Source: a virus (Duplodnaviria > Heunggongvirae > Uroviricota > Caudoviricetes). From it: a DNA stretch of 3,599 nucleotides. Location: IMG/VR virus record IMGVR_UViG_2698536484_000040; one strand, written 5' to 3'. Below are positions 664-3,599 of this stretch, piece after piece. The notes under the pieces were generated by a model that saw only the letters and a program-made list of their open reading frames with translations, was not told where the DNA came from and did not search any database. Position 1 is the first letter of the stretch. Each line of letters starts with the position of its first letter. The position numbers were made by a program, and so were the translations under genes.

Positions 664-786
664 GGGAATAAGCAGGTTGAATGCGATTACATGTTATCTG
701 CATTAAGGCGCATGGAGTTGAGAGGGCACCTTAATGAAATATATGACGGTGTGATTGTTAATAAGAAAGAAGGAAACGCGGCATGA
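664..786 (+). pseudogene. Possible 3' remnant of a prophage gene truncated by the IS insertion (open frame from the IS boundary to TGA 784-786)
   Basis: The frame is open from immediately after the IS end (...NKQVECDYMLSALRRMELRGHLNEIYDGVIVNKKEGNAA*). Its stop overlaps the ATG of the next gene in an ATGA arrangement (ATG 783-785, TGA 784-786), the usual coupling geometry in phage operons. There is no recognisable domain, and it could be non-coding leader. Confidence 0.25.
718..745 (+). promoter_or_regulatory. Candidate sigma70-like promoter upstream of the 783 gene (TTGAGA, 16-bp spacer, TATATG)
   Basis: Hexamers read by eye: -35-like TTGAGA at 718-723 and -10-like TATATG at 740-745. The -10 is imperfect (G at position 6). 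Purely a sequence-pattern guess. Confidence 0.2.
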
Positions 787-1541
787 TCACTATTACCAAA
801 GGGCGACTGCTGACAATCAAGCAGTGGCGCGAAACATACGGACCGGGTAGCAACGTTGTACTGCCAGCAGAAGAAGCGGAAGAACTGGCACGAATTGCAC
901 TGGTATCGCTGGAAGCAGAGCCGATGGCAAAGATTATAGCTCATTACCCATTAGGAGTTGACGTAGGCAAACAAAAGTTCGTACAGGCCATTGGAGAGCT
1001 TCCTGACTTTGGCGGATATCTATTTGCCGCCCCGCCAGCGCCGGTAGTGCCGGAAGAAGCAACTCCGGAAAACGTAGAAATGCTCTCTGGCTATGTTTCC
1101 ACGTACAAATTAACCGATAGCGAGCGCGATATTGCTGCCGAAATATGGAACGCCTGCCGCACCGCCATGCTTCAGTCCGGAAACTTTCGGGAAAGCAAGA
1201 ATTCGTCAACCAATAATTTTCGGGAAATCCCGGAAGCGTCAACCAGCTCTCCGGTAACTCCGGCTCTTCTGCCTGGTGGTTTCACCATTGAGGAGGCGAA
1301 GGAATTACATGAAGACCTGGTACGCAGCCACATAAGCAAGGCCTTAAGTGGCGAAAAGATGAAAAAGAAAGATCGCGATGCTGATTTGCGCTGGATTCAT
1401 GGCGTTATAGTTCAGGCAGCGTGGTTTGTAAAAGCATCACTGGAGCAGAATGCACTATCGGGCAACTCTCCGGTAACTCCGGATGGTTGGATAAGCTGTA
1501 GTGAGCGAATGCCGGACGACAGGCAGGAGGTGAATCAATGA
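783..1541 (+). CDS. Uncharacterised prophage early-region protein (252 aa) with a Pro/Ser/Thr-rich repetitive linker; its C-terminus stops right after a GWISCSERMPDD motif that resembles the start of a DUF551-type domain
   Basis: ATG at 783 is preceded by a GAAGGA Shine-Dalgarno (769-774, 8-nt spacing). The ORF is long and co-directional with xis-int. Internal in-frame direct repeats are present (see repeat features). Stop TGA 1539-1541 overlaps the ATG of the next ORF. The DUF551 resemblance is from memory of the WI...LP(E/D) motif, not a search. Confidence 0.75.
   Translation: MITITKGRLLTIKQWRETYGPGSNVVLPAEEAEELARIALVSLEAEPMAKIIAHYPLGVDVGKQKFVQAIGELPDFGGYLFAAPPAPVVPEEATPENVEMLSGYVSTYKLTDSERDIAAEIWNACRTAMLQSGNFRESKNSSTNNFREIPEASTSSPVTPALLPGGFTIEEAKELHEDLVRSHISKALSGEKMKKKDRDADLRWIHGVIVQAAWFVKASLEQNALSGNSPVTPDGWISCSERMPDDRQEVNQ
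1247..1263 (+). repeat. Copy 1 of a perfect 17-bp direct repeat ctctccggtaactccgg inside the 783-1541 CDS (encodes SSPVTP)
   Basis: Exact string match with 1466-1482, read directly from the sequence. The copies are 219 bp apart (73 codons), in the same frame. Confidence 0.95.
1466..1482 (+). repeat. Copy 2 of the perfect 17-bp direct repeat ctctccggtaactccgg (encodes NSPVTP)
   Basis: Exact string match with 1247-1263. The shorter core aactccgg also occurs at 1061-1068 (encoding ATPE). Confidence 0.95.
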
Positions 1542-1621
1542 GCTGGCCTGATGCAATCGTAACTCTGGGGGTGGTATTCGCAGCAGCGTTTGTTGTGTTC
1601 TCGATTTGTCGATGGGGATAA
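1538..1621 (+). CDS. Micro-ORF encoding a 27-aa hydrophobic peptide MSWPDAIVTLGVVFAAAFVVFSICRWG (predicted single transmembrane helix); not in the supplied ORF track
   Basis: AGGAGG Shine-Dalgarno at 1524-1529, 8 nt before ATG 1538. ATGA overlap with the stop of the upstream gene. Stop TAA 1619-1621 lies 4 nt before the next ATG (1626), so the ORF exactly fills the gap in an otherwise gap-free operon. The hydrophobic core AIVTLGVVFAAAFVVFSI is flanked by a polar N-terminus and a basic C-terminus. Confidence 0.45.
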   Translation: MSWPDAIVTLGVVFAAAFVVFSICRWG

Positions 1622-1625
1622 CCAC

Positions 1626-1868
1626 ATGTTCGCTTTGATTCAACGCGGTCAGATATACACGGACAGAGCTGGATACCCCGTGGTGATTACTCGCATCACT
1701 GAGCACTCAGTGTTCTTTCGACGGATGGACGGACGATCCGGGCGGGTACGCATTGGTGAGTTAAACTGCCTGTTCGAACATATTGACCACCAGGAGTACC
1801 GCAAAATTCTCGCGGACACTGAGCAGGAAAAGCACCTGAAAAAATTACGAGCCATAAAAAGGAAGTAA
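1626..1868 (+). CDS. Small prophage protein (80 aa), DUF4222-like
   Basis: ATG 1626 follows a GGGGA motif (1614-1618). The ORF track's 1590 start is a TTG that would overlap the micro-ORF, so ATG 1626 is preferred. The translation MFALIQRGQIYTDRAGYPVVITRITEHSVFFRRMDGRSGRVRIGELNCLFEHI... matches my recollection of the DUF4222 pattern seen in enterobacterial prophage early regions. Family call is from memory. Confidence 0.65.
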   Translation: MFALIQRGQIYTDRAGYPVVITRITEHSVFFRRMDGRSGRVRIGELNCLFEHIDHQEYRKILADTEQEKHLKKLRAIKRK

Positions 1869-2312: not shown

Positions 2313-3599
2313 ATGAGTAACGCATCATACCCGACAGGCGTTGAAAACCATGGAGGATCACTCCGTATATGGTTTCACTATAATGGCAAACGTGTCAGAG
2401 AAAACCTCGGTGTTCCTGACACAGCCAAAAACCGGAAGATCGCTGGTGAACTTCGCACTTCCGTTTGTTTTGCAATCAGAATGGGGAGTTTCGACTACGC
2501 CGCGCAGTTCCCTAATTCCCCTAACCTGAAACACTTTGGTCTGGGAAAAAGAGAGATAACCGTTAAGGCACTTTCGGAAAAATGGTTGGACCTTAAGAAA
2601 ATTGAGATTTGTGCGAATGCACTTAATCGTTACCAGTCAGTAATTAAAAACATGTTGCCTATGTTGGGTGAGAAAAAACTGGTTTCATCCATAACAAAAG
2701 AGGATTTACTTTTCGCAAGGAGAGATTTGTTGACCGGTTACCAAAAGCTTTCTAATGGAAAGATTTCTTCCATAAAAGGGCGCTCAGTGGTCACAGTAAA
2801 CTACTATATGACAACCATAGCTGGAATGTTTCAATTTGCAACAGATAATGGTTATACCTCAGGAAACCCATTTAACGGTCTGGCACCCTTAAAAAAGTCC
2901 AAGGTAAAACCAGATCCTCTCACCCGTGACGAATTTATTCGTTTTATTGAAGCTTGCCGTCATCAACAAACAAAAAACCTGTGGATTCTCGCTGTATACA
3001 CGGGTATTCGTCACGGGGAGCTGGTATCGCTGGCATGGGAAGATATAGATCTTAAAGCAAGGACTATAACCATCCGTAGGAATTATACAAAACTTGGCGA
3101 ATTCACTCCACCAAAAACCGATGCTGGCACCGGAAGGACAATTCATCTGGTTCAACCAGCTATTGATGCTCTTAAAAGTCAGGCGGAAATGACCATGCTT
3201 GGAAAGCAACATTCTGTAGAGGTAAAGCAGAGGGAATATGGGAGAAGTACTGTGCATAAATGCACTTTTGTTTTTAGTCCTCAGGTAATAAAACAGCGGC
3301 AGTTTTCCGGACCGCACTATAAGGTTGACTCCATCAGGGAGTCATGGACAAGTATCTTAAAACGCGCAGGTCTGAGACACAGAAAATCGTACCAATCCAG
3401 GCATACTTATGCATGCTGGTCACTTGCCGCTGGAGCTAATCCTAGTTTTATCGCAAGCCAGATGGGCCACACAAACGCACAAATGGTATTCAATGTTTAC
3501 GGAGCATGGATGAAAGACAACAATCACGAACAGATAGAACTCCTTAACAAAAGACTATCTGAAAGTGTCCCATGTATGCCCCATAAGAAAGCTGGGTAA
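2313..3599 (+). CDS. int: Phage integrase, tyrosine site-specific recombinase (428 aa, complete), with an N-terminal arm-type DNA-binding region
   Basis: GGAGG Shine-Dalgarno at 2304-2308. Catalytic-domain motifs are present: LAVYTGIRHGELVSLAWEDIDL (Arg box), PPKTDAGTGRTIHL, SRHTYACWSLAAGANPSFIASQMGH (His/Arg box) and NVYGAWM (candidate catalytic Tyr). The N-terminus GSLRIWFHYNGKRVRENLG resembles the arm-binding domain of Rac-type (IntR-like) integrases as I recall them. Stop TAA at 3597-3599 coincides with the window end. Confidence 0.93.
   Translation: MSNASYPTGVENHGGSLRIWFHYNGKRVRENLGVPDTAKNRKIAGELRTSVCFAIRMGSFDYAAQFPNSPNLKHFGLGKREITVKALSEKWLDLKKIEICANALNRYQSVIKNMLPMLGEKKLVSSITKEDLLFARRDLLTGYQKLSNGKISSIKGRSVVTVNYYMTTIAGMFQFATDNGYTSGNPFNGLAPLKKSKVKPDPLTRDEFIRFIEACRHQQTKNLWILAVYTGIRHGELVSLAWEDIDLKARTITIRRNYTKLGEFTPPKTDAGTGRTIHLVQPAIDALKSQAEMTMLGKQHSVEVKQREYGRSTVHKCTFVFSPQVIKQRQFSGPHYKVDSIRESWTSILKRAGLRHRKSYQSRHTYACWSLAAGANPSFIASQMGHTNAQMVFNVYGAWMKDNNHEQIELLNKRLSESVPCMPHKKAG

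Follow-up and report, generated by a model that had tools for sequence, protein, structure and literature searches.

A probable gene for a 27-residue membrane micropeptide in temperate coliphages

Background

Does the blank interval between two adjacent genes in the left arm of an Escherichia coli lambdoid prophage hold a gene of its own? The question is raised by IMG/VR virus record IMGVR_UViG_2698536484_000040 (Caudoviricetes), a 3,599-nucleotide (nt) stretch of DNA, hereafter the window, which is such an arm. A preliminary description made from the letters alone proposed that a small open reading frame (ORF), translationally coupled to an upstream gene of 252 amino acids (aa), fills this interval and encodes an uncatalogued hydrophobic peptide. 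Host-kill, holin-like, type I toxin-like and membrane-regulator roles were considered for the product. The analysis presented here indicates that the small ORF is likely to be a real coding gene for a 27-residue single-pass inner-membrane micropeptide of an unnamed coliphage family; that positions 1538-1621 constitute a translated and selected gene for a membrane peptide appears likelier still.

Conservation of the reading frame

The small ORF (1538-1621, plus strand) comprises 27 codons and a TAA stop and encodes MSWPDAIVTLGVVFAAAFVVFSICRWG, an assignment founded on its sequence and its conservation. Relatives were surveyed in pooled IMG/VR, GTDB and GenBank loci, homologous places being defined by blastn. 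The frame is unbroken and exactly 27 codons long at 364 of the 368 homologous places, which together show 69 different alleles and 45 different peptides. The four exceptions are a 1-nt deletion in a low-coverage contig of a metagenome-assembled genome (MAG), an extra G in a G-run, a lost stop and a copy cut by the end of its contig. Frameshifts or stops in relatives had been named in the preliminary description as grounds for giving up the gene, and the ORF passes this check. The same 27-codon frame is open in the diverged copies of 933W, Stx2 II, Av-05, E. coli SC434 and pPE4. Frame, start, stop and Shine-Dalgarno (SD) sequence are retained in copies whose DNA is only ~74% identical, amid many unrelated flanks, and the stop codon is TAA in 50 alleles and TGA in 5.

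Because the initial harvest (56 alleles) relied on patterns derived from the peptide itself, relatives were also sampled by way of the flanking genes. All 80 relatives anchored on the downstream DUF4222 gene carry the small ORF directly upstream, intact in 79. Among loci anchored on DUF551, a domain of genes found upstream of the ORF (42-99% protein identity), ~67 of ~75 informative loci have an intact 27-codon ORF, and this sample yields new variants such as MNWPEAFAITGVAMAIAFLVYVICRWG. At the other 8, a different gene, not a decayed copy, is joined to the same GGAGG-containing DUF551 end.

Purifying selection on the peptide

Purifying selection acts on the amino acid sequence of the small ORF. 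Over codons 7-23, which were not fixed by any search pattern, the pairwise ratio of nonsynonymous to synonymous differences (pN/pS) is 0.44 when the codons are read in frame; the +1 and +2 readings give 0.88 and 1.39. Variation is greatest at third codon positions (184 versus 88 and 58). The preliminary description had called for a comparison of synonymous and nonsynonymous conservation, and its outcome favours a gene: a tree of the 69 alleles carries 117 synonymous and 118 nonsynonymous changes, where 26-28% synonymous would be expected (p = 2e-15 to 2e-12), and the same changes read in the shifted frames give synonymous to nonsynonymous ratios of 34:143 and 37:140. The tree-based counts correspond to an omega of ~0.35-0.5. 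Constraint is most evident at the C-terminal end, where Cys24 (5 synonymous changes, 0 nonsynonymous) and Arg25 (7 and 0) together accumulate 12 synonymous changes and no replacement; Gly11 (8 and 2) and Gly27 (10 and 3) show a similar bias.

Translation signals

The window carries an AGGAGG SD sequence at 1525-1530, within the last codons of the 252-aa gene and 7 nt before the ATG. The preliminary description recognised this motif and its good spacing, but had placed its start one base too early, at 1524. It was also right that the ATG (1538-1540) overlaps the TGA of the 252-aa gene (1539-1541), the resulting ATGA (1538-1541) being a start/stop overlap of the kind associated with translational coupling. 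Both signals recur across 125 distinct 284-nt contexts of the small ORF. GGAGG lies at positions -18 to -4 relative to the ATG in 117 of them, compared with 2.7% of control ATGs; the spacer between SD and ATG is 7 nt in 91 and 10 nt in 25; and in 115 a long upstream frame ends at a stop-start overlap. These counts uphold the proposal of a genuine small gene coupled to the 252-aa gene.

The stop codon (1619-1621) is followed after a gap of 4 nt by the ATG of the DUF4222 gene at 1626. As had been claimed, the small ORF thereby occupies 84 bases that would otherwise be blank. Were it left out, 1542-1625 would be the largest unexplained gap in the gene row, whose remaining intergenic gaps are 3, 18 and 33 nt. 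A TGGGGA within codons 24-27, 8 nt before the DUF4222 ATG, may be a weak SD-like element.

Predicted product

The peptides have conserved ends, M-x-W-P-[D/E]-A and C-R-W-G. M1, C24, R25 and W26 are invariant in all 45 peptides, and W3, P4, A6, G11, A15, A17 and I23 are nearly so. Codons 6-23 (1553-1606), which include the conserved G11, A15 and A17, specify the hydrophobic core of a predicted transmembrane helix, and codons 24-27 (1607-1618; C-R-W-G, with C24, R25 and W26 invariant) a putative C-terminal anchor. The best 19-residue hydrophobic window begins at residue 6 in 45 of 45 variants. The summed insertion dG of the window allele is -1.85. Its hydrophobic moment is 0.05, and moments are mostly < 0.1 across the family; the helix would thus lack a polar face and not be amphipathic. 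The earlier picture of essentially one hydrophobic helix with a short tail agrees with these values; the tail is C-terminal and holds a single Arg. At 27 aa, the product falls within the 50-aa limit of small single-pass membrane proteins and combines one bilayer-length hydrophobic segment with a coding-gene signature; it is predicted to be an unnamed phage member of this recognised protein class.

A lipoprotein or secreted-peptide precursor, which would show a basic N-region together with a lipobox or a signal-peptidase I site, is not supported. The N-terminus is acidic (M-S/T-W-P-D/E), only three residues follow Cys24, and the F/Y-S-I that precedes this cysteine is not a lipobox, the consensus of which is [LVI][ASTVI][GAS]C.

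Distribution

Of 5426 complete E. coli genomes, 1018 (~19%) match a 121-nt query around the small ORF, at 1332 places in all and with up to 4 copies per genome. In 849 of the 1037 matching records the best match has only 60-80% identity. By tblastn the peptide is found in 70 phage records, including 933W, VT2-Sakai, Stx2 II, ArgO145 and the virulent Vequintavirinae phage Av-05, and in 226 plasmid records, mostly non-mobilizable and of ~95-100 kb. The plasmid-borne copies come from E. coli, Salmonella, E. fergusonii and Klebsiella; one plasmid record that was examined is IncY, and we take this plasmid to be P1-like. Carriers of the unnamed family are temperate coliphages, namely lambdoid and Shiga toxin (Stx) prophages and phage-plasmids of the IncY, P1-like kind, together with one or more virulent phages.

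A species-wide scan of GTDB, with strict patterns that could miss distant relatives, returned only Escherichia and Shigella plus three tiny contigs. These contigs, labelled Acinetobacter idrijaensis (369 bp), Xanthomonas pisi (431 bp) and Segatella copri MAG (1.8 kb), carry near-identical E. coli phage sequence with the small ORF. The ORF also occurs, together with a hok gene, in 'Actinobacillus phage vB_Apl-pPE4'. The Acinetobacter, Xanthomonas, Segatella and Actinobacillus attributions probably reflect contamination or mis-assigned hosts rather than true host range. In the K-12 prophage CPS-53, the DUF551 gene yfdS is directly followed by yfdT, and only chance-level matches to the small ORF were found.

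Flanking genes and modularity

At least six unrelated upstream gene ends precede the small ORF: the intact DUF551 end (...HWMPLPEPPQEVNQ), the gutted DUF551 end of the window (...SERMPDDRQEVNQ), an '...NGLISVEDILR' module, the zinc-ribbon/coiled-coil protein L0139 of 933W, the eaa protein of the IncY plasmid (with a TAATG overlap) and gp123 of Av-05. The sequence that lies downstream is of ~20 kinds. In some copies DUF4222 starts at +4 nt, in others mok/hok lies ~150 nt further on, and in others again a KilA-N or RelE/ParE gene converges on the small ORF; the IncY phage-plasmid has its next gene only 3 nt beyond the stop. The conserved block runs from the SD to the stop codon, as expected of a gene module in mosaic phages.

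The 252-aa gene (783-1541, plus strand), the Ead/Ea22-like mosaic gene that is the upstream partner of the small ORF, matches Pfam DUF551 only partially, over profile positions 1-16 of 68. Its intact relatives read DGWISC, then ~60 aa, then HWMPLPEPPQEVNQ. In the window the interior is lost, leaving ...DGWISCSERMPDD joined to RQEVNQ. At 1485-1541 the last five residues (QEVNQ) are kept, with the embedded SD and the start intact, and the deleted form is common (134 harvested copies, duplicates counted). At five loci the DUF551 C-terminus ...PLPEPPQEV is encoded by CCGCCGCAGGAGGTG, which therefore also serves as a GGAGG ribosome-binding site for whichever gene follows. At least four different downstream genes begin 5-10 nt after this GGAGG end. 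From its sequence, the end of the DUF551 gene appears to be a general coupling junction in these mosaic phages.

In 933W-type contexts (loci L003, 1501-1950, and L007, 1501-1951) the small ORF ends ~90 nt upstream of annotated sokW and mokW/hokW, which places two small hydrophobic peptide genes side by side. In the 933W record its ATG is at position 58909 on the minus strand.

Further along the window, the DUF4222 gene (1626-1868, plus strand; 80 aa; Pfam DUF4222, 8e-14), 4 nt after the small ORF stop, is followed by a 44-aa gene (1872-2006; PGAP WP_021524344.1; phrog_3871, 2e-32), a DUF1233 excisionase gene (2025-2279) and a tyrosine integrase gene (2313-3599). The integrase abuts mlrA/yohO in identical copies elsewhere. 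At its left end (1-662) the window includes the 3' portion of an IS3-family transposase gene, with rve domains (ORF 1-654), up to the end of the element, which points in the same direction as the operon. Homology with a relative free of this insertion sequence (IS) starts only at 663, so that the IS inserted within a hypothetical gene that normally precedes the 252-aa gene. Given its orientation, the element may separate the operon from pL or supply read-out transcription.

Annotation status

RefSeq/PGAP leaves 1542-1625 unannotated in identical copies, and the small ORF is annotated in none of the phage, plasmid or RefSeq records examined. Common gene callers have a 90-nt minimum, and the small ORF measures 84 nt. 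Since the 44-aa ORF at 1872-2006 is annotated and the 27-aa ORF is missed, small genes are caught here at 44 aa and not at 27 aa. An exact-sequence look-up in a collection of ~15 billion proteins did not return the peptide of the window. Three of six other peptides of the family that were looked up do have sporadic GenBank entries, as 'bacteriophage protein', 'Prophage protein' and 'hypothetical protein'. The description of the gene as untracked therefore holds for RefSeq and for the exact peptide, but not wholly for its relatives.

The statement that the peptide matches no named family stands: no significant match was found in Pfam (E <= 0.01), NCBIfam, PHROGs or PADLOC, and the PADLOC defence models match neither the peptide nor the neighbouring gene products. 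Some alleles, although not that of the window, match phrog_4612 (unknown function) weakly (E = 0.011-0.029, ~16-17 bits). This is most likely a generic hydrophobic likeness. The idea that phrog_4612 is a mis-started form of the small ORF was discarded when upstream-extended translations gave no gain in score.

Clusters at 90% identity file 27-aa peptides of the family alongside 121-aa and 185-aa 'DUF551 domain-containing proteins'. These longer proteins end in ...PPQEVNQ and lack the peptide; the clustering is therefore an artefact, and a Rosetta-stone fusion of the peptide to DUF551 was rejected. PGAP labels a contig-edge fragment in the frame of the small ORF (GGESMTWPEAF...ICRWG, 31 aa; protein P0012) 'DUF551 domain-containing protein, partial'. 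This label, like the clustering, looks like an annotation artefact.

Alternative explanations

Several observations weigh against a gene for a membrane peptide. Selection is moderate (omega ~0.35-0.5), and at three of the 368 places the frame is disrupted, by a frameshift in two and by loss of the stop in one. The median insertion dG of the family is ~0, which is borderline. Alleles with changes expected to be disruptive, some of them charged residues within the helix, recur at several loci: V20E in 8 copies, D17 in 15 (MIWPEAFAITGVAIAIDFLVYVICRWG) and W3R in 6. G11R, also within the helix, occurs in 1 copy. The V20E, D17 and W3R alleles could be tolerated variants, cases of functional specialisation or early decay. 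No record of the peptide turned up in ribosome profiling (Ribo-seq) or proteomic data: it is absent from the Ribo-seq supplements for the enterohaemorrhagic E. coli (EHEC) strain Sakai, a study that considered only ORFs >= 30 aa, and the peptide strings of the family occur in no full text of the literature searched. The proposed mode of action draws on residue conservation and analogy only. Finally, the antisense frame that shares third codon positions with the small ORF has a pN/pS of 0.34, equally good, and is open in 54 of 56 alleles. The choice of the sense strand consequently rests on the evidence of start, stop and SD. Neither the start nor the ends of this antisense frame are conserved; often it lacks any start codon, and in the window its first one lies outside the conserved block. 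An antisense gene was rejected on this account. The openness and low pN/pS of the frame are no surprise, given how the two frames are aligned and how many of the sense codons are of the G-first (GNN) type. In the Stx2 II record (locus L004, 1001-1750, minus strand) the small ORF and the genes beside it are covered by an annotated antisense 'ORF C38' of 249 aa. The antisense frame there is open because many sense codons start with G, and the entry looks like over-annotation.

That 1538-1621 is not a gene at all seems barely credible. The frame would then be fortuitous, lying in a conserved linker without coding function, for instance a recombination boundary of mosaic phages, or the signal would come from an antisense gene or RNA element. 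Short conserved junctions are indeed present in mosaic phage genomes, gene callers usually pass over the small ORF, and the open antisense frame, with its low pN/pS and its one long annotated counterpart in a phage record, would suit this account. It is contradicted by variation that peaks at third positions and by a synonymous excess found, among the forward frames, only in this one. ATG, SD and stop position are conserved, with switching between TAA and TGA, the antisense frame lacks conserved limits, no RNA structure is conserved, and the conserved block has the limits of a gene module, from SD to stop. A second possibility, that the act of translation matters and the peptide does not, ribosomes merely being passed from the Ea22/DUF551-type gene to the next gene, is very improbable. 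The overlap with the upstream stop, the 4-nt distance to the DUF4222 gene, for which TGGGGA could serve as SD, the 3-nt distance in the IncY phage-plasmid copy and the conservation of the exact length would all fit such a relay or spacer. However, the amino acids themselves are constrained (C24, R25 and W26 invariant, with 12 synonymous changes; G11 at 8:2; an overall synonymous excess), and many contexts have no coupled downstream gene, there being a ~150-nt gap before mok/hok in 43 copies or a convergent gene. Moreover, where the small ORF is absent the end of DUF551 couples straight to the next gene, and hence no relay is needed.

More serious, though still improbable, is a membrane-damaging effector of the type I toxin, Hok or holin kind, which would depolarise or permeabilise the inner membrane and kill or arrest the host. 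The peptide is small and hydrophobic, and TisB, DinQ and the Ibs peptides are comparable to it in size. The small ORF lies ~90 nt upstream of sokW/hokW in the 933W-type context, adjoins RelE/ParE-ParD pairs elsewhere and is often found in regions that carry stabilisation genes. A minus-strand promoter for an antisense RNA had been suggested as the mark of a type I toxin; within 1300-1900 no sigma-70-like promoter was detected on either strand, and the single terminator-like hairpin in this interval lies inside DUF4222. Rfam gave no family at E <= 1 in the region of the small ORF, positions 1500-1660 fold no better than shuffled sequences (z = +0.91 on the plus strand and +1.22 on the minus strand), and 18 diverse alleles share no consensus RNA structure (-1.07 kcal/mol, 5 pairs, no covariation). 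An RNA element or antisense RNA was rejected on these grounds. The type I toxin hypothesis of structure-repressed translation from a separate transcription unit is contradicted by the strong SD, conserved in 117 of 125 contexts, and by the directly coupled start, with its stop-start overlap in 115 of 125. Kinship with Hok/Gef (PF01848) finds no support, there being no Pfam match to this or any other toxin family at E <= 0.01, a length of 27 aa against the ~50 aa of that family, which has a conserved periplasmic domain containing Cys, and separate hokW/mokW/sokW genes annotated downstream in 933W. Nor does the helix show a polar face (moment 0.05 against 0.35 for TisB). Two features argue against a holin. 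Holins are late genes of the lysis cassette, adjacent to endolysin and spanin genes, whereas this gene sits in the early-left Ea22 region, between the Ea22-like gene and DUF4222/xis/int, its other contexts being likewise early or accessory; and where holins have a highly charged hydrophilic C-terminal domain, the tail here is just C-R-W-G and bears one charge. Genomes also tolerate as many as four copies of the gene. The host-kill, holin-like and type I toxin-like roles first suggested are therefore unsupported, lacking the features that define them.

Expression, topology and possible function

Of the roles originally listed, the fourth, a membrane regulator, appears the most plausible. The small ORF would have no promoter of its own. 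Ribosomes finishing the Ea22/DUF551-type gene before it would start on it by coupling or re-initiation, and its expression would be that of the early-left (exo-xis/ea) operon. If so, synthesis of the peptide would come soon after infection or induction, and the quiescent lysogen would not make it. A single change, ATG to ATA, would abolish its start while converting the upstream TGA to TAA and leaving the 252-aa product unaffected, which makes the gene cleanly testable.

In the proposed model, residues 6-23 would form a uniformly hydrophobic single helix in the inner membrane. Trp3 and Trp26, 23 residues or about one bilayer thickness apart, would lie at its two interfaces. The acidic N-end (D/E5) would face the periplasm and the C-R-W-G end the cytoplasm. 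This N-out/C-in topology is probable yet weakly supported, since the charges are nearly balanced between the two ends. The small-x3-small motifs G11-x3-A15 and A13-x3-A17 may form a helix-packing face. As the conserved small residues would provide such a face, binding to a host or phage membrane protein, or self-association, seems the most likely way for the peptide to act, rather than the punching of holes. Partner binding as such is nevertheless a tentative proposal, which we rate at somewhat below even chances.

Several known systems bear on this model. MgrB, AcrZ, MgtS, PmrR, KdpF and CydX are likewise of ~20-50 aa, with a single hydrophobic helix, and are often missed by annotation. They act by binding a larger membrane protein, as is suggested for the present peptide. 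KdpF (29 aa) has a comparable hydrophobic profile. There is no sequence similarity to these regulators (NCBIfam KdpF model, E = 2.6) and, unlike them, the peptide is phage-borne, mobile and not tied to a fixed partner operon. The toxins TisB, DinQ, Ibs, Ldr and HokW are also small and hydrophobic, some are prophage-borne, and in 933W the small ORF lies near hokW/sokW. In contrast to these, it has no antisense RNA, own promoter, translation-blocking leader or amphipathic face, and its SD is strong and coupled. Short coat proteins of the Pf3/M13 type share an acidic N-tail, one hydrophobic helix and a basic/aromatic C-terminal anchor, the C-terminus of Pf3 being ...GIRWIK and that of the family ...ICRWG. 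They are inserted independently of Sec by YidC, in an N-out/C-in orientation, which would imply a similar route and topology for the peptide. It differs from them in that it is not a virion component, judging by context, is much shorter and lacks homology.

The exo-xis/ea genes (ea22, ea8.5, orf60a, orf61, orf63 and orf73) occupy the same neighbourhood as the small ORF and presumably the same early-left transcript. They are non-essential accessory genes of high mosaicism. The described exo-xis products include no membrane micropeptide, and an ORF following Ea22/DUF551 variants is unmentioned in the exo-xis/Ea22 papers examined. The region has been reported to affect the lysis-lysogeny decision and Stx prophage induction (PMC7093339, PMC4195576, PMC10834534), and its genes are reported to shift lysogeny and induction (PMC7093339, PMC4195576). 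It is conceivable, if rather unlikely, that the phage uses the micropeptide to modulate one particular host protein of the inner membrane, for example a transporter, sensor kinase, protease or DNA-entry factor. It would then be made together with Ea22-type proteins, in the first few minutes of infection or induction, and would bear on the choice between lysis and lysogeny, on Stx-prophage induction or on superinfection exclusion, both in EHEC and in other E. coli. Were this true, the long-studied but poorly understood exo-xis/ea region would gain a membrane-acting component not seen before.

As a class, small membrane proteins are recognised yet badly under-annotated, and the small ORF would be a clear example. 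It is present in ~19% of complete E. coli genomes, in the reference Stx phages 933W and VT2-Sakai, and in IncY phage-plasmids of E. coli and Salmonella, and the family could be added to annotation resources straight from the alignment made here. Such a gene would be unsurprising in principle, yet it is widespread, is carried by medically relevant Stx phages and lies in a region tied to the lysis-lysogeny decision.

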